A stretch of 34,996 nt of DNA, from positions 1-34,996 of the forward strand of contig JANWIA010000034.1 of NCBI GenBank assembly GCA_025450105.1. The letters are read 5' to 3'. The stretch's first letter is position 1. Each line of letters starts with the position of its first letter. Under the pieces are notes generated by a model, which did not search any database, had not been told where the DNA came from, and saw only the letters and a program-made list of their open reading frames with translations. This document shows positions 12,407 through 34,996 of the stretch, one piece after another. The DNA comes from Candidatus Doudnabacteria bacterium (GTDB lineage: Bacteria > Patescibacteriota > Doudnabacteria > UBA920 > O2-02-FULL-48-8). The translations under genes and the position numbers were made by a program.

Positions 12407-14512
12407 CTATGATTTCACTTGCTTCTCCGCTTGTTCGAGCTTTAAGGAAAGGATCTTCGAGATGCCTTCGTCGGTCATGGTTACACCATAAAGCGTATGG
12501 GCTTCGTGCATAGTCGCACGGTTATGGGTAATAGTCACGAATTGCGTTTGATGAGCTAGCGTCCCGAGAATTTTTGCAAAACGAATTGAGTTGGCTTCAT
12601 CCAAAGCAGCATCGACTTCATCTAATACTACGAATGGCGATGGGTACGATGCGAGCATGGCGCAAAGCAAAGCGATTGAAGTTAATGCGCGCTCCCCACC
12701 AGATAATGCGGCGATGGTAGAAAGCTTTTTTCCAGGAGGAGTTGCTTTGATTTCAATCCCGACTACCTGCTTAGTGCCCTTTATTTCCTCATCCTCCCCT
12801 TCTTCCTTTTCTTCAATCTCTTCGCCTTCTTCTGTAACAATTTCCTTCAACAAATTCATGTGCGCCCGGCCACCGTTAAATAAAATACGGAAGTATTCCG
12901 AAAACTTTGTGGAAATTAGGCCGTAGGCTTCATCGAATTGTTTCTTAATAACATGGTCAAGCTCATCAATAACCTGCCGCAAATCCGTAACAGCTTTTGT
13001 TAAATCCGCATGCTGCGACGACAAATAATTAAACCTCTCTTCGGTTTCGCGGTATTCCTGCATGGTCAATTCATCAACACCACCGGCGAGTTCCAATTGC
13101 CGCTTGAGCTTTTCAATTTTATGAGGCAAATCTGCAGCAACACTTTCGACTTTATCAGTAGGCTCAACCGCATGGCCCATAGTCTCGCGTGAAGTCTGCA
13201 ACATCGACTCGAATCTTGTTTCTATGCGGGCCTTTTCCACCATGATTTTGGTCTGCTCTTCCTTTAACAAATTTAACTGCGAAGATTTAATGCGGAATCT
13301 TTTTTCCTCTTCAGTCAAAAAACTTTTCTTCCGTTTTTCTTCCGCAATTAACTTTTCACGGGCAGTGTTATGGTCGTGTATTTCCTCAACCATTTTTTCC
13401 AAACGGTCATCCAACTCCTTCTTCTGTTTCAATAACTCCGTATTATCGCTTTGGCTGTATTCAGCAACGAGATCCTTAAGCTTCTTTTTTACTTCACTAA
13501 GATTTTTCTCTGTGATGGATTCAATAATTTCCTCAAATTGTTTGCGGAATACGGAAAAATCTCTGGCAACCGGTACCTTAAGCTTACCTCTAATCTCGGC
13601 GAGCTTTTCCAGTAAATCCAATTTCTTTTTTTCCAACGCACTGCCCTTTTTATCTAATTCATCCAAAAAACTGTTGGAGTTTCCGGTTTGAACCTCTTCC
13701 TTTTCTAAAACTTTTTGGAAAGATCCGATTTCGTGCTCCAATTTTTTAATACCCTCCTGGCTGCCATCAAAACGACCTGAAATTTCCTTCAATTCCTTAT
13801 CCAACAAATAATACTGGTGACCAAAGTACTGTCGATTTAAATCTGAATACTCTTTTTCTAAACCTTCGCGCTCTTCCATCCGCTTGGCTTGGCGGCGCAA
13901 AGACTTCAAGCGCGGCTCTATTTCGTTGATTAAACTTGAAACTTGGGTTAAATTTTCTTCGGTTTGCTCCAAACGACGAATTGTTTTGTCGCGCTTGGTG
14001 TAATATGGCTTAACGCCAGATGCTTCTTCGATTAAATTTTTAACTTCGGCCGGACCGGCCAAAACCATTTGATCGATAGTACCCTGCCCAATAACCGCAT
14101 AGTGGCTCGCGCCGAATCCGGAACGGGATAAGGCATCGACCACATCCAGTAAACGGACACGCTGGTTGTTAACCAAATATTCCGATTCTCCATCGCGGTA
14201 AACCCGGCGGCGGATTTCCACCTCGGAATATTCAAACGGCAACTTATGGTCTTTGTTATCGAAAGTCAGCGCGACTTCGGCCATAGATTGCTTCGATTTT
14301 TTGTCGGAACCGGCAAAAATTACGTCTTCGGTTTTTTTCCCGCGCAAAAGTTTCATGGATTGTTCTCCCATGACCCAGCGCAAAGAATCAGCGACGTTGG
14401 ATTTACCCGAACCGTTGGGGCCGACAACCGCAGTCATGCCTGGTTCAAATTCCAATACCGTTTTGTGCGCAAAGGATTTGAACCCGTGAATTTCTAACCG
14501 TTTTAAATACAT
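12407..14512 (-). CDS. smc: SMC-family ATPase, short form (701 aa)
   Basis: GFKSF, Walker A GPNGSGKS, DVIFAGS, signature LSGGE, Walker B VVLDEVDAALD, ITH. Confidence 0.93.
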   Translation of the reverse strand: MYLKRLEIHGFKSFAHKTVLEFEPGMTAVVGPNGSGKSNVADSLRWVMGEQSMKLLRGKKTEDVIFAGSDKKSKQSMAEVALTFDNKDHKLPFEYSEVEIRRRVYRDGESEYLVNNQRVRLLDVVDALSRSGFGASHYAVIGQGTIDQMVLAGPAEVKNLIEEASGVKPYYTKRDKTIRRLEQTEENLTQVSSLINEIEPRLKSLRRQAKRMEEREGLEKEYSDLNRQYFGHQYYLLDKELKEISGRFDGSQEGIKKLEHEIGSFQKVLEKEEVQTGNSNSFLDELDKKGSALEKKKLDLLEKLAEIRGKLKVPVARDFSVFRKQFEEIIESITEKNLSEVKKKLKDLVAEYSQSDNTELLKQKKELDDRLEKMVEEIHDHNTAREKLIAEEKRKKSFLTEEEKRFRIKSSQLNLLKEEQTKIMVEKARIETRFESMLQTSRETMGHAVEPTDKVESVAADLPHKIEKLKRQLELAGGVDELTMQEYRETEERFNYLSSQHADLTKAVTDLRQVIDELDHVIKKQFDEAYGLISTKFSEYFRILFNGGRAHMNLLKEIVTEEGEEIEEKEEGEDEEIKGTKQVVGIEIKATPPGKKLSTIAALSGGERALTSIALLCAMLASYPSPFVVLDEVDAALDEANSIRFAKILGTLAHQTQFVTITHNRATMHEAHTLYGVTMTDEGISKILSLKLEQAEKQVKS

Positions 14513-28075: not shown

Positions 28076-29596
28076 TCACTCAACTTTTGGCCTGTATTGA
28101 ATGGCTTCTGCAATATGTTCCGTTTTAATTTTCGGTTCTAAATTTAGATCGGCAATGGTTTTGCTGACCTTTAGTATCCGATGATATGATCGTGCCGATA
28201 AATTTAATTTAATCACAGCGTTCTTAATAAATTCCTCCTCCTTTTTACCCAGGATACAATGTTCACGAATTTCTCTTAGCCCCATTTCAGAATTTGTTTT
28301 GATGGATTCCTTTCCCATAAATCTTTTTGTTTGCTCGTCGCGGGCTTTTTGCACTCGATCTTGAATTTCTGCCGACGATTCTGATTGGGACAGTCCAGTT
28401 AATTTTTCATAATCGACCCGGCCGACCTCAACATGCAAATCGATGCGATCCAGGAGTGGACCAGAAATTTTCTTTTGGTATTTCATGACCTGGGCCGGAC
28501 TACAAATGCAAGATTTGCTTGGATCACTGAGATACCCGCAAGGACAAGGGTTTTGCGCCGCGACTAATGAAAACTTTGCCGGGAATACATAAGTTCCTGC
28601 TGCCCGAGCAACGGTGACAATACCGTCTTCTAATGGTTGGCGCAAATTTTCCAAAACTGATCGGGAAAATTCGGGAAACTCATCTAAGAATAGAACACCT
28701 CGATGCGCAAGGGATATTTCTCCGGGTTTTGGGTTTGATCCCCCACCGACTAACGCCACTCCCGATGTTGTGTGATGCGGATTTCGAAATGGGCGAACGG
28801 TAATCAAGTGGTTACCAAAGTTTAACAAACCAGCCACACTATAAATTTTGGTAATTTCCAAAACCTCATCCACGTTTAAACGAGGAAGAATGGATGGCAA
28901 GGCCTTGGCTAGTAAAGTTTTCCCGGATCCAGGCGGCCCAGACAATAAAACATTATGACCGCCTGCTGCGGCAATCTCTAATGCCCGCTTTGCAGTTTCC
29001 TGACCGCGGATCAGTTTCATGTCAAAATCGATTTTCGGCACACTTAATACTTTCTTCCAATCCGTTCGCGGAACTGGATCTAAATGTATCATGCCCTGAA
29101 GATATCCAATTAATTGCAGTAGGCTGTCGCAGGCAATGATTTTAACTCCCGTGACCAAGCCTGCTTCATTAATATTTCCTGACGGCACAAAAATTTCACT
29201 AAATCCCCTGTCCTTGGCCGTTAACAGAATTGGCAATATTCCAGCGACTGTCCGAATACTGCCATCCAGCGCCAATTCCCCCACAAACAGTTTCTTGGTC
29301 GGATCAAATTCTATTTGTCCGGAATTCAAAAGAATGGAAACAGAAATCGGCACATCAAAATGCGTTCCGTTTTTGGCAAAATCCGCCGGCGCCAAATTAA
29401 CCGAAACTTTGTTACGCGGAAAAATAGCATTCGAGTGTTTTATTGCCGCCTTCACCCTCTCTTTTGCTTCCTGAACGGCGGTATCTGGTAAGCCACCAAT
29501 TATGGTTTTTGGCAAACCTGGTGAAATATCAACCTCGACTTCCACCAATTCCGCATTTAACCCAACCACAGCGGCTGAATAAACCTTGGTCAGCAT
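28076..29596 (-). CDS. comM: YifB/ComM family Mg-chelatase-like AAA+ ATPase
   Basis: GLPDTAVQEAKERV, VNLAPAD, GPPGSGKT, PGEISLAHRGVLFLDE, NPCPCG. Confidence 0.96.
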   Translation of the reverse strand: MLTKVYSAAVVGLNAELVEVEVDISPGLPKTIIGGLPDTAVQEAKERVKAAIKHSNAIFPRNKVSVNLAPADFAKNGTHFDVPISVSILLNSGQIEFDPTKKLFVGELALDGSIRTVAGILPILLTAKDRGFSEIFVPSGNINEAGLVTGVKIIACDSLLQLIGYLQGMIHLDPVPRTDWKKVLSVPKIDFDMKLIRGQETAKRALEIAAAGGHNVLLSGPPGSGKTLLAKALPSILPRLNVDEVLEITKIYSVAGLLNFGNHLITVRPFRNPHHTTSGVALVGGGSNPKPGEISLAHRGVLFLDEFPEFSRSVLENLRQPLEDGIVTVARAAGTYVFPAKFSLVAAQNPCPCGYLSDPSKSCICSPAQVMKYQKKISGPLLDRIDLHVEVGRVDYEKLTGLSQSESSAEIQDRVQKARDEQTKRFMGKESIKTNSEMGLREIREHCILGKKEEEFIKNAVIKLNLSARSYHRILKVSKTIADLNLEPKIKTEHIAEAIQYRPKVE

Positions 29597-29830
29597 TTAT
29601 TTAATTGTCTCGACAAAACCAAAAACCTGGGACAAGGAACTCTTAAAATTTTCAATTTCTGATTCAAAAATCATTATATTTGCCCTTTGCTTTTCGCCAT
29701 TAGCCTTAACCGAAGCTTCAGAAATCCGAATATACGGCTTGTCGTCCTTGGTTTTTCTGACATCAAAGAAAAAATTCCTTCTGCCCGCGTTAAATTTTGT
29801 TGAAAACAATGGTGGTGTAATTTCCGCCAT
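29597..29830 (-). CDS. DUF3276/PUR-like ssDNA/RNA-binding protein
   Basis: FSTKFNAGRRNFFFDVRKTK..PYIRISE...IMIFESE..F pattern. Confidence 0.85.
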   Translation of the reverse strand: MAEITPPLFSTKFNAGRRNFFFDVRKTKDDKPYIRISEASVKANGEKQRANIMIFESEIENFKSSLSQVFGFVETIK

Positions 29831-30000
29831 AAAATCCTTTCTGGGATAATCCCAGCATTTAATGATAAGAAAATATTCTATAAACTAGAAAAAATCTTGT
29901 AAATACTCCTAGCTTGTGGGTAACTTTAGGGGCGTTGCTCAGATTGGGCAAAATAAAAAAGATCCCTAAGGATCTCATTTAAATCTGCTTGTTGAAAAAA

Positions 30001-30183
30001 TTAACGGGTGAACAGTAAACCGTTAAATCGGTCGTTTACAATTAACGGAACTCCGGAAAGCTGCTTTACTTCTTTGGCCAGGTTCTGGAGTCGGCAGTCG
30101 TGAGCCAGTCCATTTGTGCAATGGGCGCAAAGGCCACGGATCTGTTCTGCGATATTAAATTTTTGTTGTTCAAACTCTGACAT
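30001..30183 (-). CDS. Small Cys/His protein (CxxC...HxC), possible Zn binder
   Basis: 60 aa, starts 16 bp after the lexA stop, followed by a hairpin plus U-tract at about 29955-29975. Confidence 0.7.
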   Translation of the reverse strand: MSEFEQQKFNIAEQIRGLCAHCTNGLAHDCRLQNLAKEVKQLSGVPLIVNDRFNGLLFTR

Positions 30184-30199
30184 ATGTTTACAATTTAAT

Positions 30200-30814
30200 T
30201 TATTCCATTCTTCGGATCAGTCCTACGACCTTGCCTTGGACTGACCATTCGTGTTCCGGATAGATATTCGGATATTCTTTGTTTTCAGCTTTAAGAAAAA
30301 ATTTGCCGTCTTTTTTTACTAAACGCTTTACCGTAGCTTCGTCTTCCAGTAGCGCAACCACAATATCGTTTACTTCGGCAATCTTTTGTTGTTTAACAAG
30401 AACCAAGTCTCCATTCAAAATTCCGGCGTCTTTCATACTCATACCTTGGACTTTGAGCAGGAACATATCCTTGCGGCCTCTAATCAAACTTACAGGCAGC
30501 TGCAACCAATCTTCAATTTGCTCTTCGGCAAGCATTGGCATACCGGCTGTAATTCGTCCGAGCAGCGGGATATTGATCATGCCTCGGGTGAGCGGTTCCC
30601 CTTCTCCGGTTAATACTTCTATTCCGCGAGCTTTACCACTTTTGCGAACGTAACCCTTGGCTTCCAGTGCATTCAGCAACTTTGCAACAGCATTCTTAGA
30701 TTTAACTTTTAGCGCGGTGGCCATCTCCGAAACACTCGGCGGTAATCCATTATCTTGGATTTCACCAGACAAGTAATCGAGAAGTTTCTTTTGTTTAGGA
30801 GTTAGTTCGTTCAT
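30200..30814 (-). CDS. lexA: LexA SOS repressor
   Basis: LTPKQ...GLPPSVSEM HTH, AG cleavage site (TAGMP), GMSM catalytic Ser, ATVKR catalytic Lys. Confidence 0.96.
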   Translation of the reverse strand: MNELTPKQKKLLDYLSGEIQDNGLPPSVSEMATALKVKSKNAVAKLLNALEAKGYVRKSGKARGIEVLTGEGEPLTRGMINIPLLGRITAGMPMLAEEQIEDWLQLPVSLIRGRKDMFLLKVQGMSMKDAGILNGDLVLVKQQKIAEVNDIVVALLEDEATVKRLVKKDGKFFLKAENKEYPNIYPEHEWSVQGKVVGLIRRME

Positions 30815-30815
30815 A

Positions 30816-31130
30816 TCAGTCTTGTTTAAAATCTAATTGCTCATTCGGAATGTTTATGGATAATCCATATTTAATGGCCTCGACTTTGTCTGTAACCACC
30901 TTGTCCTTAAATACTACAAGCATTCCTTTTTCACTCCAAAAATTAGCGTACCATGGACCTTCTTTAATAAAATCTTTTAGTTCGGTTACTTGTTTTTTTG
31001 AGCCGATGACTTTGACTAAGTTCCAAGTATCATTTTCAGGACCAATTGTTTGAGTAGAAAGAACTTCAAACCGATCAAGTACTGCAATGTCAGATAAACT
31101 CTCTTTAACTATTACTCCTAAATATTTCAT
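30816..31130 (-). CDS. Hypothetical protein (104 aa) translationally adjacent to lexA
   Basis: Start reassigned to ATG 31130 (MKYLGVIVKESL...PWYANF...IPNEQLDF); the longer track ORF starts inside the promoter and crosses the hairpin region. Confidence 0.78.
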   Translation of the reverse strand: MKYLGVIVKESLSDIAVLDRFEVLSTQTIGPENDTWNLVKVIGSKKQVTELKDFIKEGPWYANFWSEKGMLVVFKDKVVTDKVEAIKYGLSINIPNEQLDFKQD

Positions 31131-31135
31131 AAATT

Positions 31136-31285
31136 TGGTAGGGTCCCCTCCGCCCTCCAGCAGGAGGGGTTGGAAGCTTCGCCCGGTCAGGACGACCGGG
31201 CGTCCGATCGAATGATCAGACGAAGGAACCAATAAGATTGGGGGCGGCTCCCAAACCCACCGATTCCTTCGTTTTGTTCTTCCGT
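31136..31285 (-). ncRNA. Candidate structured RNA/leader of the lexA operon
   Basis: Four consecutive hairpins between promoter and ATG; G-U pairs only on minus; ends in CCCUACCA. Confidence 0.6.
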
Positions 31286-31291
31286 ATAGAC

Positions 31292-31320
31292 ATAGTATAC
31301 GATCGTTCACCCAATGTCAA
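31292..31320 (-). promoter_or_regulatory. sigma70 promoter with imperfect palindrome (candidate LexA box)
   Basis: TTGACA-17 bp-TACTAT; GTGAAC-GATC-GTATAC at 31295-31310 overlaps the spacer and -10. Confidence 0.7.
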
Positions 31321-32583: not shown

Positions 32584-32660
32584 TGGTGGGCCAGGAAGGA
32601 CTCGAACCTTCGACCTAGTGTGTATAAGACACTTGCTCTAACCAACTGAGCTACTGGCCC
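32584..32660 (-). tRNA. tRNA-Ile(TAT)
   Basis: GGGCCAGTAGCTCAGTTGGTTAGAGCA AGTGT-CTTATAC-ACACT AGGTC GAAGG-TTCGAGT-CCTTC CTGGCCC ACCA; anticodon UAU, discriminator A. Confidence 0.94.
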
Positions 32661-33545: not shown

Positions 33546-33902
33546 TTATTGCGCGTGGGTTTTACAGGTGCGGGCTTCCGGTAATGCGCGCAAACGATCT
33601 TCTTCGATCTCATCGCCCATCTCGCAGACACCGTAAGTTCCATTCTCAATTTTTTTCAATGCCGCTTCGATGTTCATGAGCTTGTCTTCCAAGTCTTGTG
33701 TCACTGCCAAGTTGCTGGCGTACTGTTCGACTTCAGAAGCGTTCTCCCCTTCTTCGCGTCCGACTTCCGGAAAATCCGGTTTGTACTCGCCGGGAAATTC
33801 TCCCTTGCCGTCTAATTTTCCTTCGTGGCCCAAAACAGTTCGGATGCGCTTGGCTTCGTCCAACAATTTTTTCTTATTCTCTTCTGCTAATTTTTGGTTC
33901 AT
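33546..33902 (-). CDS. DksA/TraR family protein
   Basis: IEAALKKIENGTYGVCE..EIEEDRLRALPEARTC..H; own promoter TTGGCA-17-TATACT at 33926-33954. Confidence 0.9.
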   Translation of the reverse strand: MNQKLAEENKKKLLDEAKRIRTVLGHEGKLDGKGEFPGEYKPDFPEVGREEGENASEVEQYASNLAVTQDLEDKLMNIEAALKKIENGTYGVCEMGDEIEEDRLRALPEARTCKTHAQ

Positions 33903-33967
33903 AAAAATAGGTTACTGACAAAAGTAGTATAGCAACATCTGCGGCCCGTGCCAAGATTTTGCAAAAT

Positions 33968-33989
33968 AAAAAAAGAGCCTACTGCTCTT
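33968..33989 (-). terminator. Intrinsic terminator closing the non-coding transcript
   Basis: AAGAGC-AGTAG-GCTCTT followed by a T-tract on minus. Confidence 0.75.
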
Positions 33990-34454
33990 GGATTTAAAAA
34001 TAGAGTGTGGGCGGATGATACCGCTCTTATATAAAAAATATGTAGCGTCATCCGCCCAACTAACGACTTCCACGAAGTCGATCTTCGTTCGCAGGATTGG
34101 GAGGCCTACTAATACTTTAAAAATTTTGTTTAAAGCGTAAGTCGCCCAAGCCTGGAACAAAGGTCGGCATTCTTTTGTGAAAACCGTTTGTACTTATATA
34201 TCTAATCACTTTATAAGTGTAAGAATGTTCATCACTGTTCTTACGGTTTTTTAGACCTAACAAATTTTTGATGTTTTTATTTTTGTTTTATTTTTATTTT
34301 TAAAACTTTTTGATTTTTGTTTTACAAGCAGCTGGATTAGAACAGCTATGACGAATAGTGAAGAACGGAAATTGGTTAAAGAGGTCTTTCACCCCTAACC
34401 GCCCCGCGCTATATCTATTGTTGAGGTCTAAATGTATTTCGTTTTTAATGTTCT
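33968..34454 (-). ncRNA. Candidate large structured ncRNA (about 490 nt), family not recognised
   Basis: Perfect promoter, terminator, no credible ORF, many local and long-range helices. Confidence 0.6.
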
Positions 34455-34460
34455 GTAGAC

Positions 34461-34489
34461 ATTATAGCAAAAAAAACCGGCCCTGTCAA
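34461..34489 (-). promoter_or_regulatory. Consensus sigma70 promoter
   Basis: TTGACA-17 bp-TATAAT with extended TG. Confidence 0.88.
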
Positions 34490-34675
34490 TGATTCTGCTG
34501 TATTATTGACCAAAAATCAAGGCGGCCGATCCAAGTATTTTTTAAATTCCCAAATGAAAAATAATATTTCTCGAGGCAATAAAAAAATTCGGCTCTAAAA
34601 AATTATTTGAGTCGAACTTTTTTATTTTTTCCTAAATTGATCCGAGGTTTTGCCAAATCTGTTAAGCAATTCCCG

Positions 34676-34996
34676 TTACTCGCCTGTGCTTAGCACTAAA
34701 TCCGTTTCCTTGGCCTTGGCCCGGATTTGTTTTTCAATTTCTGTGCATAACTTGGAGTTGTCCCCAAGGAAAGTCTTGGCTGCTTCCCGTCCCACGCCAA
34801 GCTTGGTCTCACCAAAGCTAAAGGTGTTGCCCGACTTGGTGATGACCTGGAACTTGGTTCCGGTGTCGAGCAGATCCGAAGTGTAGGAGATGCCACCTTC
34901 GCTAAACATGATGTCGAACTCTGTGGTCTTGAACGGCGCCGCAACTTTATTCTTTACAATTTTTGCTTTGACGCGGTTACCAATGATTGCTTCGCC
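34676..34996 (-). CDS. recA: Recombinase A, C-terminal fragment (truncated by window)
   Basis: GEAIIGNRVKAKIVKNKVAAPFKTTEFDIMFSEGG...KSGNTFSFGETKLGVGREAAK. Confidence 0.96.
   Translation of the reverse strand, partial: GEAIIGNRVKAKIVKNKVAAPFKTTEFDIMFSEGGISYTSDLLDTGTKFQVITKSGNTFSFGETKLGVGREAAKTFLGDNSKLCTEIEKQIRAKAKETDLVLSTGE

Follow-up and report, generated by a model that had tools for sequence, protein, structure and literature searches.

A putative gene for an undescribed, highly structured RNA of about 490 nucleotides in Candidatus Doudnabacteria

The transcription unit and its gene neighborhood

We analyzed a stretch of 34,996 nucleotides from a Candidatus Doudnabacteria genome (the window). 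Near one end, an earlier note made from sequence alone had proposed a stand-alone, ORF-free noncoding RNA (ncRNA) gene downstream of recA. The unit and the genes that follow it lie on the minus strand, and the two protein-coding genes were identified by Pfam and NCBIfam matches:

34489-34461, minus: promoter, with -35 TTGACA (34489-34484), a 17-nt spacer, and a TG-extended -10 TATAAT (34466-34461)
34454-33968, minus: RNA gene, ~490 nt (487-488), inferred start through the last U of the terminator
33989-33968, minus: intrinsic terminator, AAGAGC-AGUAG-GCUCUU plus U7
33954-33926, minus: promoter-like site of the dksA-like gene, TTGGCA-17-TATACT with TG (sequence match)
33902-33546, minus: yteA/dksA-like zinc-finger gene
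33537-33100, minus: lspA

A near-consensus, TG-extended sigma-70 promoter and an intrinsic terminator belong to the unit itself. The promoter scores 12/12 against consensus, with TG preceding the -10 box. A homologous promoter scoring at least 10/12 was present in 72 of 77 homolog loci, compared to 179 of 1540 shuffles (11.6%) and just 2 of 36 downstream control stretches. The family alignment likewise contains a terminator, with a GGCUUUUUUU tail. Thus, the exact TTGACA-17-TATAAT promoter at 34489-34461 and the terminator at 33989-33968 (hairpin plus T-run) that the earlier note had called both held, but its description of the RNA as abundant was derived from the promoter only and has not been demonstrated. 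Transcription is inferred from the promoter to start near 34454, and both RNA ends are inferred from promoter and terminator rather than mapped. Full-length homologs in the window's family span 428 to 549 nt (23 sequences), and the unit was kept in all 24 of the same-family genomes searched with blastn.

The yteA/dksA-like-lspA pair lies downstream on the same strand in 36 of the 40 loci with at least 800 nt of flank, including loci from other classes. Upstream, recA is found in 22/22 loci of the window's family versus 0/18 of other families, so the claim that the unit sits downstream of recA held for the window's own family only, and the conserved neighbor is yteA/dksA-like-lspA. The distance from terminator to gene is 15 to 135 nt in most loci. 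Past the terminator, 21 of 40 loci have a strict TGnTAnnnT, and TATAAT/TATACT-like hexamers are visible in others; in the window itself, the claim that the dksA-like gene has its own promoter held to the extent of a promoter-like site. In one remote genome, the RNA and the dksA-like gene are separated by an lgt-like gene. A stop-to-stop measure of ORF-free sequence upstream provided no discrimination.

A multidomain fold with a kissing loop

The folding energy of the 488-nt RNA is -137.9 kcal/mol (z = -8.4), a value equaled by none of 100 shuffles. In the resulting multidomain fold, helix P2 (13-14 bp) closes a central domain that holds P3, two A-rich single-stranded tracts, and P5. The loop of P3 kisses the loop of P6, which is the start of a 3' domain (P7, P8, and P9). 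From 5' to 3', the elements are as follows:

34454-34442, minus: 5' motif AGAACAUUAAAAA, conserved, with family consensus AGAACNUUGAAAA
34411-34399 with 34368-34356, minus: P1, a purine-rich/pyrimidine-rich helix that may close the 5' variable hairpin
34400-34374, minus: 5' variable hairpin (GAAAG loop), position kept and sequence differing
34360-34353, minus: P2 5' strand CACUAUUC, plus extension GUUCU (34366-34362)
34352-34346, minus: junction GUCAUAG (CGUCAUAG motif), nearly invariant throughout the class
34347-34330, minus: hairpin P3, AGCUG/CAGCU, with conserved loop UUCUAAUC (34342-34335)
34326-34265, minus: A-rich tracts, mostly unpaired; UGUAAAACAAAAAUCAAAAAG with invariant AAAACAAAAA, then a small variable hairpin and a second tract AUAAAACAAAAAUAAAAAC
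34257-34245, minus: hairpin P5, GGU..ACC, only 3 bp in the window, with a conserved AYAAG after it
34240-34233, minus: P2 3' strand GAACAGUG, plus extension AUGAAC (34232-34227)
34217-34193, minus: hairpin P6, CUUAUA/UAUAAG, with a 13-nt loop containing GAUUAGA (34207-34201)
34186-34177 with 34073-34064, minus: P7, CGGUUUUCAC with GUGGAAGUCG, spanning the 3' domain (34186-34064) and enclosing P8 and a variable hairpin
34171-34155 with 34090-34075, minus: P8, inside P7
34154-34092, minus: variable hairpin of the 3' domain, inside P7
about 34059-34008, minus: long hairpin P9, UGGGCGGAUGA...UCAUCCGCCCA

Covariation among homologs supports this fold. Across 78 homologs, 94.4% of cells in the core were paired and 13 of 18 pairs showed compensatory changes. 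None of 500 shuffles matched this result, and slid controls paired only 37-43%. A more diverse set of 25 sequences gave similar values (95.8% paired; 15 of 18 core pairs compensatory). By helix, compensatory changes were found in five of eight pairs of P2 and four of five pairs of P5 (78 sequences each), and in four of five pairs of P3, where 99.5% of cells were paired. The A-rich tracts contain invariant columns in alignment A1 and are present in remote families too. These statistics carry biases: shuffle controls overstate significance because the homologs are kin, alignments A2 and A4 lean toward the model's structure because they were fitted to the covariance model, and the covariance-model E-values are rough.

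The kissing contact joins the P3 loop UCUAAUC (34341-34335) to the complementary P6 loop GAUUAGA, a contact absent from the list of helices in the earlier note. At least six contiguous Watson-Crick pairs could be formed in 74 of 81 homologs, via at least 15 covarying variants, whereas the same criterion was met by 207 of 4804 non-cognate pairs and 92 of 1620 shuffles. In most homologs, the P6-side partner begins 17-23 nt past the core, and the P6 stem is present when the 23-sequence family alignment is folded. In the 3' domain, folding of the 23 family sequences predicted 36 pairs, 21 of them with compensatory changes. Examples in P7 include columns with CG 18/AU 4, CG 16/UA 6, and UA 15/CG 7. 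P9 is conserved with altered stems in relatives (e.g., GGAGCGGAGAC/GACUCCGCUCC and GGAGAGGAUUGUCC/AAAUCCUCUCC), and its inner stem covaries.

P1 and the P2 extension share bases, the former through its 3' strand and the latter through its 5' strand, so they may be alternative pairings or may meet in a junction. The longest-helix test gave only a weak difference between cognate and non-cognate strands for P1 (7.15 vs 6.23) and was uninformative for the P2 extension (4.88 vs 4.77). The extension is supported instead by a listing by family, in which the sequence differs but complementarity is kept: GUUCU/AGAAC, UCUUG/CAAGG, CUUUA/UAAAG, CUCCUG/CAGGAG, CUCCA/UGGAG, and UCCCC/GGGGA. The 5' motif, which reads GCACCUUGAAA or GUUCUUUGAAAA in other families, is likely single-stranded; when pairing partners were sought for it, none kept a consistent position or covaried across families.

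The complementarities listed in the earlier note are all literally present in the window, but their comparative support is unequal. Of its eight structural elements, five were supported, one proved clade specific, and two clash with covarying helices, leaving three of the eight not conserved. The UAGCUG/CAGCUG hairpin (P3) and the 14-bp pairing of 34366-34353 with 34240-34227 (P2 plus its extension) held with covariation support, as did the A-rich tract, which is conserved, and the terminal stem at 34058-34008 (P9). The GAAAG-loop hairpin held as a variable hairpin of conserved position. By contrast, UUUAGACCU/AGGUCUAAA (34432-34424 with 34258-34250) occurs in only three sequences, those of the window and of its two closest relatives, where the P5 bases can alternatively form this pairing; elsewhere, its 3' partner forms the local hairpin P5 instead. 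The pairings AAAACCGU/ACGGUUUU and GGCGACUU/AAGUCGUU were both unsupported, since their bases pair otherwise in the covarying P7.

Distribution, expression, and searches for known RNAs

The RNA is found in nearly all genomes of the window's class. With the core covariance model, it was detected in 137 of 146 genomes at E <= 0.001 and in 138 of 146 at E <= 0.01, including 115 of 118 high-quality genomes. Each genome with the RNA carries one copy, with the exception of one that has an additional truncated match. Class and order comprise an identical set of 146 genomes here, so the class-level search added nothing to the order-level one. A broader model recovered the RNA from 13 of the 144 genomes sampled among other Patescibacteria families; it is present in at least 10 other families of the Patescibacteria. 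Named records with the RNA are mostly labeled Candidatus Doudnabacteria or Patescibacteria. The suggestion that it is possibly CPR specific survives all tests run. A loose pattern scan of genome contigs returned at least 119 stretches, and 43 of 80 retrieved loci were chance matches that the model did not recognize. Viewed by eye, analogous units (promoter, GUUCUUUG-AAAA motif, A-rich tract, and terminator) appear in two further families.

The unit lacks a conserved reading frame. Its longest sense-strand ORF has 48 codons with a TTG start, and the longest sense ORFs of 24 homologs range from 14 to 60 codons in differing places and frames. No ORF was conserved in frame, length, or start, and the earlier ORF-free call held. 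Evidence for transcription is tentative: the one supporting contig, 157 nt from a soil metatranscriptome, matches 34193-34332 with 90-95% identity, but it is short, comes from a relative, and could reflect contaminating DNA. Among 20 sequencing runs with matches, all shares were <= 0.13, and the three runs examined carry only short pieces from relatives; we draw no claim about habitat or absence from these runs.

No known RNA family accounts for the unit. Rfam 15 (4227 models, among them OLE, ROOL, GOLLD, HEARO, raiA, T-box, 6S, SRP, RNase P, and tmRNA) matched only three tRNAs in the whole window at the gathering threshold. When 33800-34750 was searched at E <= 10, there were 13 matches, none relevant to the unit; the best (E = 0.32, 21 bits vs a threshold of 90) lies outside it. 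The novelty proposed in the earlier note, for which it had named an Rfam covariance search as the check, therefore held. So did the absence of tmRNA, RNase P, and SRP motifs that it had reported, as judged by model searches and the relatives' loci. ARAGORN found no tmRNA in the window, and the genome's tmRNA lies elsewhere (contig C4, 12096-12479; 121.5 bits). RNase P RNA models (RF00010/RF00011) had no match in the window's own assembly, though rnpA is present; 21 of 24 family relatives with the RNA described here have RNase P RNA at other loci. The 6S RNA model (RF00013) matched neither the window's genome nor, at E <= 10, the unit region, and 6S RNA is a ~180-nt irregular hairpin with a central bubble rather than a ~487-nt multibranched fold supported by covariation. 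A resemblance in P9 to the T-box sequence GGGCGGUA..CCGC, noticed by eye, was not borne out by any T-box model match. A T-box is also disfavored because the downstream gene is neither an aminoacyl-tRNA synthetase nor an amino-acid gene. As for other leaders or riboswitches, no Rfam cis-regulatory model matched, and the downstream gene has its own promoter-like site.

In the genomes searched, we found no SRP. The RNA models RF00169 and RF01854 matched 0 of 41 genomes of the class, and RF00169 had no match in five other Patescibacteria. The Ffh M domain (PF02978) was found in 0 of 41 genomes and the SRP54 GTPase domain (PF00448) in 0 of 151 at E <= 1e-10. With E. coli Ffh as a query, tblastn found nothing in the window's genome, while five control proteins matched. 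Ffh, FtsY, and SRP RNA are all undetected in the sampled Patescibacteria. We also observed that the window has smc and rpsP without ftsY-ffh in the slot between them.

Our search of the open full-text literature returned nothing on large ncRNAs in CPR/Patescibacteria; subscription journals and supplements were excluded, and an earlier description is possible. Nor did that search return a paper on 6S RNA in CPR or on SRP loss in Patescibacteria. One article (PMC10768705) names SRP genes with APY09_ locus tags among host-strain comparisons, which we take to be host genes. Another (PMC8321541) mentions a SecA sequence and nothing else relevant, and the searched terms were absent from PMC11665869 and PMC9868632.

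Interpretation and comparison with known systems

We conclude that the locus is very likely (probability of roughly 0.85) a gene for a discrete, noncoding, highly structured RNA of ~490 nt that belongs to an undescribed family and is single-copy and near-universal in its class, although there is no direct proof of a discrete RNA. With its conserved fold, one copy per genome, and no match to a known family, it looks like an undescribed housekeeping RNA. The stand-alone, ornate ncRNA new to Rfam that the earlier note had proposed is supported by all tests run. The fold is already well constrained, with covariation backing five helices and the kissing loop. A near-universal, single-copy RNA runs across a whole CPR class and extends to other Patescibacteria families. 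An important role can be argued, because ~500 bases and a consensus promoter are kept in tiny genomes of 0.6-1.3 Mb. Recognizing the family could improve the annotation of these genomes.

How the RNA functions can only be inferred, and no partner protein has been identified. The mechanism that we favor, at low confidence, is that it would act in trans as a housekeeping scaffold or decoy for a protein partner. In this picture, the invariant AAAACAAAAA-type (AAN)n tracts would be presented on a rigid, pseudoknotted framework along with the CGUCAUAG junction and the 5' motif AGAACNUUGAAAA. Candidate partners are a protein that binds single-stranded RNA, or else RNA polymerase acting with the DksA/YteA-like factor encoded next to the RNA; the partner would be titrated as by the CrcZ, CsrB, 6S, or Ms1 RNAs. 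Hfq was considered as a partner and rejected: tblastn with E. coli Hfq found nothing at E < 7 in the window's genome. The strict same-strand position directly upstream of yteA/dksA-like-lspA would also fit a role in cis.

That cis role forms the first rival explanation, in which the unit is a leader or attenuator of the yteA/dksA-like-lspA operon and the terminator governs read-through. In its favor, adjacency to the dksA-like gene is kept over families and classes (36/40 loci) while the upstream gene varies, the terminator stands only 15-135 nt ahead of that gene in most loci, and by eye ACAGAG farther downstream offers an alternative partner for the P9 3' strand CUCUGU in many members of the family. 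We nevertheless consider this rival unlikely. A separate -10 element lies past the terminator (strict in 21/40 loci), the lgt-like gene intervenes in one remote genome, and no T-box or riboswitch model matches. Furthermore, known attenuators need far less than a consensus promoter and a fold of 430-550 nt in which a tertiary kissing loop is conserved.

An analog of 6S or Ms1 RNA that would bind RNA polymerase, perhaps with its YteA/DksA-like neighbor, is a second rival that we regard as improbable; polymerase binding is an inference. The window's genome has no 6S model match, the gene is single-copy and near-universal in the class with a consensus promoter, and adjacency to a DksA/YteA-family gene is conserved. 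However, the RNA is multibranched with a kissing loop and not a rod with a central bubble, its length is two to three times that of the 6S model (187 positions), and RF00013 had no match at E <= 10. The dksA-like-lspA pairing may also be merely an old gene order; a ylyA-lspA pairing is known in Bacillus subtilis.

Two further rivals can be set aside more firmly. The RNA is very unlikely to be a highly divergent SRP RNA, RNase P RNA, or tmRNA. The lack of SRP RNA in 41 class genomes (RF00169 and RF01854) and five other Patescibacteria (RF00169), and of RNase P RNA in the window's assembly despite rnpA, would speak for it; but tmRNA is found elsewhere in the genome, RNase P RNA lies elsewhere in 21/24 relatives, and an SRP RNA would be without a partner because SRP proteins are missing too. 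A small-protein gene, encoding the MPTFVPGLGDLRFKQNF peptide or a hydrophobic peptide across P2 and P3, is also highly improbable. The ATG where P8 begins (GAAUGYYKRCC) is conserved, but the peptides read from it run from 10 to >40 residues and are unrelated after a few codons, since the variable hairpin that comes next carries non-triplet indels. Nucleotide conservation makes a hydrophobic reading (..SPLFVIAVL.QL.VKQK) recur in several relatives, but this reading lacks a conserved start, is altered by compensatory changes in P3 (AGCUG/CAGCU to AGGAG/CUCCU or AGGUG/CACCU), is broken by non-triplet indels, and is out of frame in the next family.

A bolder reading, which we think doubtful, is that this is a lineage-wide housekeeping ribonucleoprotein RNA filling a gap left by genome reduction. 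Bacteria have few structured RNAs that are both large and deeply conserved; the solved ones (RNase P, tmRNA, SRP, and 6S) are central machines, and OLE, ROOL, GOLLD, and raiA are unsolved. The RNA would then be the core of an alternative machine, such as a membrane- or lipoprotein-targeting particle replacing SRP, or else it would take the place of 6S RNA in CPR, together with the RNA-polymerase factor encoded beside it. The idea of an alternative machine arises because SRP is undetected and the RNA is locked beside lspA (lgt in one lineage) and a DksA/YteA-like gene.

The preferred reading, a discrete RNA of an undescribed family, can be placed beside several known systems. Bacterial SRP RNA (4.5S/6S scRNA; RF00169 and RF01854) would be the "missing" universal RNA of these genomes; the window RNA differs in having no model match and, by eye, no conserved helix-8 motif, in genomes with no detected Ffh or FtsY. 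It resembles 6S (RF00013) and mycobacterial Ms1 RNAs as a housekeeping-style, single-copy, strongly promoted gene, one that adjoins a gene of an RNA-polymerase-binding factor family in a genome without a 6S match, but it departs from them in length and architecture as described above. Sponge RNAs such as CrcZ and CsrB/RsmZ are likewise noncoding and separately transcribed, with repeated short single-stranded motifs. CrcZ has A-rich Hfq/Crc-binding motifs, which the (AAN)n tracts of the window RNA (e.g., AAAACAAAAAUAAAA) resemble. However, the window RNA has only two A-rich tracts, set in a deeply conserved tertiary fold; it is conserved across the class and beyond, and its genome is without Hfq by tblastn.

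The earlier note had compared the RNA in size class to ROOL and OLE, a likeness that we take up although neither model matches. ROOL and GOLLD (RF03087 and RF01998) share its size class (>= 0.5 kb), complex folds with tertiary contacts, and lack of known function. They are often prophage linked and patchily distributed, whereas the window RNA is single-copy, syntenic, and present in 138/146 class genomes, with no match to either covariance model. Multimer formation is known for other large bacterial RNAs. OLE RNA (RF01071) is ~600 nt, ornate, lineage restricted, and chromosomal; many of its unpaired nucleotides are conserved, it works as a ribonucleoprotein, and for a long time it had no known biochemical function. 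The window RNA differs in host phylum, in having no OLE model match at E <= 10, and in its neighbors (yteA/dksA-like and lspA) and its own promoter and terminator; to our knowledge, no oap genes are associated with it. Still, it resembles OLE in being a large, ornate, lineage-restricted RNA of the chromosome.

Transcription unit and neighboring genes

The RNA is encoded by a separate transcription unit on the minus strand and has a compact, pseudoknotted, multi-domain fold with invariant single-stranded elements. The promoter and terminator enclose approximately 487 nt between recA and a YteA/DksA-like gene, and lspA comes next. The features in order of transcription are as follows.

34996-34676, minus: 3' end of recA, upstream of the RNA
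34489-34461, minus: sigma-70 promoter; perfect TTGACA, 17-nt spacer, and TATAAT, with TG preceding the -10 box
33989-33968, minus: intrinsic terminator closing the unit
33954-33926, minus: TG-extended promoter-like site belonging to the YteA/DksA-like gene
33902-33546, minus: YteA/DksA-like C4 zinc-finger gene, downstream of the RNA

The promoter recurs among homologs. A match of at least 10/12 was found 64 to 231 nt upstream of the core (the central part holding helices P2, P3, and P5) in 72 of 77 homologs, and 54 of the 77 had a match of at least 11/12. Of 1,540 shuffled controls, 179 met the lower threshold and 15 the higher one, and downstream stretches reached 10/12 in 2 of 36. On the 3' side of the terminator, a strict TGnTAnnnT motif was present in 21 of 40 loci, and some others show -10-like hexamers by eye.

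Of 40 loci whose flank spans 800 nt or more, 36 have a same-strand dksA/yteA-like gene downstream of the RNA, usually followed by lspA. This arrangement was seen in the window's family (22/23), in three more families from the class (9/9, 1/1, and 1/1), and in remote loci (3/6); one further remote locus carries lspA, along with a dksA-like open reading frame (ORF) recognized by eye. The location downstream of recA, as described in the earlier note, is true for the window's family only (22/22 loci versus 0/18 in other families). In some other Patescibacteria families (L197 of genome G158; L248 and L249), an lgt-like membrane protein gene directly precedes the dksA-like gene, and at L197 it sits between that gene and the RNA. 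The RNA therefore repeatedly adjoins lipoprotein-maturation genes.

Several other elements were observed nearby. A long AT-rich inverted repeat (34576-34628) lies directly 3' of the recA stop codon, where Rfam returned only a chance microRNA-like hairpin score; it resembles a terminator of recA and could separate that gene from the promoter of the RNA. GC-rich palindromes of the type CCGACGCUUCGGUCGGAG / CCCGACNNNNNGUCGGG, which look like repeated extragenic palindromes, border the RNA gene, on a single side or on both, in three family relatives (L013, L014, and L017) and are not in the window. Within a few kilobases of recA (28076-31310, minus) are genes for LexA (30200-30814) and a ComM/Mg-chelatase-like protein (28076-29596), along with a 164-aa ORF without a Pfam match (30816-31310). 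Finally, a tRNA-Ile with anticodon TAT (UAU; 32584-32660, minus) is located between a serine-hydrolase-like gene and lspA. Such a tRNA is uncommon because AUA is usually decoded in bacteria by a lysidine-modified CAU tRNA.

Covarying fold and a kissing loop

The folding energy of the 488-nt RNA was -137.9 kcal/mol versus -92.1 ± 5.5 for shuffled sequences (z = -8.4), and none of 100 shuffles folded as well. Helices P2, P3, and P5 were supported by covariation in three core alignments. In a MAFFT alignment of 25 sequences, 88.7% of cells were paired, with compensatory changes in 8 of 18 pairs (shuffles, 0/500; slid controls, 31 to 51%). A model-fitted alignment of 78 sequences gave 94.4% and 13 of 18 pairs (260 cells; shuffles, 0/500; slid controls, 37 to 43%), and a diverse set of 25 sequences gave 95.8% and 15 of 18 pairs (shuffles, 0/500; slid controls, 34 to 47%). 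Two of the three alignments were model-fitted and are thus biased towards the structure of the model. For the 3' domain, RNAalifold predicted 36 pairs from 23 family sequences, 21 of them with compensatory changes. The predicted helices include the inner stem of P9 and P6 to P8, which are listed here with P2.

34360-34353 with 34240-34233, minus: P2, CACUAUUC with GAACAGUG, supported by covariation
34217-34193, minus: P6
34186-34177 with 34073-34064, minus: P7
34171-34155 with 34090-34075, minus: P8

P2 continues into an extension whose sequence varies by family while complementarity is kept (GUUCU/AGAAC, UCUUG/CAAGG, CUUUA/UAAAG, CUCCUG/CAGGAG, CUCCA/UGGAG, and UCCCC/GGGGA). P1, of the type GGAGAA/UUCUCC, may close the 5' hairpin and overlaps the 5' strand of this extension; the two are either alternatives or parts of a junction.

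Sequence complementarity identified a new tertiary contact, a kissing loop between the 3' domain and the central one. Seven bases of the P6 loop, GAUUAGA (34207-34201), are exactly complementary to the P3 loop, UCUAAUC (34341-34335). In an alignment-free test of 81 homologs, we compared each P3 loop with the 75 nt after its own core. At least six contiguous Watson-Crick pairs were found in 74 homologs (7 bp in 46, 6 in 23, 8 in 4, and 9 in 1), with the partner beginning 17 to 23 nt past the core in most. The same threshold was met by 207 of 4,804 non-cognate combinations and by 92 of 1,620 shuffles. There were at least 15 distinct complementary loop variants, including UCUAACC/GGUUAGA, UCUAGUC/GACUAGA, UCCAAUC/GAUUGGA, UAAGUC/GACUUA, CCGAUA/UAUCGG, and CCAUGA/UCAUGG.

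Of the eight structural elements proposed from sequence alone, five held: the P3 hairpin (by covariation), a 14-bp pairing that corresponds to P2 plus its family-variable extension, the 5' GAAAG-loop hairpin (conserved in position, variable in sequence), the A-rich tract, and the terminal stem (P9). The pairing UUUAGACCU/AGGUCUAAA (34432-34424 with 34258-34250) was confined to the window plus its two closest relatives; in other sequences the 3' bases form hairpin P5. The two proposed closing helices of multi-hairpin domains, AAAACCGU/ACGGUUUU and GGCGACUU/AAGUCGUU, were not supported, and both compete with the covarying P7.

Distribution of the RNA

The RNA is single-copy and nearly universal in a class whose genomes are very small. 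With blastn, the unit was found in all 24 same-family genomes (69 to 82% identity), with a sharply conserved core at 34367-34192. We built three covariance models of the 128- to 134-position core (34362-34231): R1 from 25 sequences (alignment A1), R2 from 78 (A2), and R3 from 25 weighted towards remote members (A4). The order and class search sets were the same 146 genomes, and R1 matched 137 of them at E ≤ 0.001, including 115 of the 118 rated as high quality, and 138 at E ≤ 0.01. Each matched genome in the class carried one copy, the sole exception being one with a second, truncated match. In a phylum sample of 144 genomes outside the class, matches were found in 4 (R1), 5 (R2), and 13 (R3) genomes, the last from ten families and including 7 from the training set. 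Hairpins P3 and P5, the AAAACAAAAACAAAA tract, the junction ACUnnUCGU..AG, and the AAGAnnnGU strand all persist in the remote matches, whose P2 shows compensatory changes.

A loose-motif scan of named genome records yielded at least 80 loci, 37 of which were recognized by R1. These were labeled Candidatus Doudnabacteria (8), (uncultured) Candidatus Saccharibacteria (16), Patescibacteria group (7), Candidatus Kerfeldbacteria (1), "bacterium" (2), and other phyla (3). The last three, at 115 to 124 bits, fall in the scoring range of the window's family, and their names probably reflect submitter labels. The remaining 43 had no R1 score at E ≤ 0.01; most have non-CPR labels and are chance motif matches, and a few carry Patescibacteria-type labels. 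In 25 loci that hold dksA-like genes of other families, a model search with filters off gave nine matches at E ≤ 0.5, of which four were clear and lay upstream of the gene on the same strand, and two weaker ones occupied the same position. Two further families have an analogous unit, recognizable by eye, to which the model gives little or no score. The RNA family is likely wider than the models detect.

Rival identities and possible function

No known RNA family accounted for the unit. At gathering thresholds, Rfam 15 identified only three tRNAs in the whole window, and a relaxed search of 33800-34750 (E ≤ 10) gave nothing credible; the best match (E = 0.32; 21 bits versus a threshold of 90) fell outside the unit. 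Signal recognition particle (SRP) RNA was rejected because SRP RNA models had no match in 41 genomes from the class and SRP proteins were undetected as well. RNase P RNA was rejected since 21 of 24 family relatives encode it at a locus separate from their own copy of this RNA. Neither RF00010 nor RF00011 matched the window's own 93%-complete assembly, G000, despite the presence of rnpA (C14:16051-16362), most likely reflecting an assembly gap rather than loss. ARAGORN found no tmRNA within the window, and the genome's tmRNA is on a different contig. The unit had also been said to lack a credible coding sequence, which held: its longest sense ORF has 48 codons with a TTG start, and those of 24 homologs (14 to 60 codons) differ in place and frame. 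Just one peptide reading recurs; it spans P2 and P3, lacks a conserved start, is altered by compensatory stem substitutions, and is frame-shifted in the next family.

No SRP was detectable in G000 or the sampled genomes by the searches we ran, an observation that bears on these rival identities. Among 151 sampled Patescibacteria genomes, none had a match to the SRP54-type GTPase domain (Ffh, FtsY) at E ≤ 1e-10, and none of 5 genomes searched at E ≤ 0.001 had one above the Pfam cutoff. The Ffh M domain was detected in 0 of 41 genomes, and Small SRP RNA in 0 of 41 and 0 of a further 5. In G000, whose file has no masked bases, tblastn with Escherichia coli Ffh gave no match; the controls SmpB, L19, TrmD, S16, and GrpE all matched. 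In Bacillus subtilis, ftsY and ffh occupy the smc-rpsP interval, which here spans 59 nt.

15332-14649, minus: rnc, adjacent to smc
14512-12407, minus: smc, between rnc and rpsP
12347-11922, minus: rpsP, 59 nt from smc

The SMC homolog (12407-14512, minus) has only 701 aa. Typical SMC proteins have about 1,200. The SMC_N model covers residues 2 to 685, and therefore both head halves are present with a much shorter coiled coil than usual.

Evidence for expression is limited. Twenty sequencing runs share words with the stretch, each at a share of 0.13 or less. An rRNA-depleted soil metatranscriptome yielded a 157-nt contig over 34193-34332 (90 to 95% identity), and two DNA runs yielded short contigs over 34308-34411. 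The former is a weak hint of transcription in a close relative; contigs show no ends, strand, or level. The open-access full texts searched (no non-open journals or supplements) contained no description of such an RNA or of a loss of SRP in Patescibacteria.

We infer that this may be a trans-acting housekeeping RNA whose conserved junctions and A-rich (AAN)n tracts would be displayed to a partner. That it serves as a protein-binding scaffold or decoy remains tentative (probability of roughly 0.3), with no partner known; tblastn found no Hfq in G000. A cis role on the downstream dksA-like-lspA operon, whose first gene has its own promoter-like site, is unlikely. Within the scaffold or decoy reading, a tie to RNA polymerase and to the DksA/YteA-like factor encoded next door, in the manner of 6S or Ms1 RNA, is likewise improbable.
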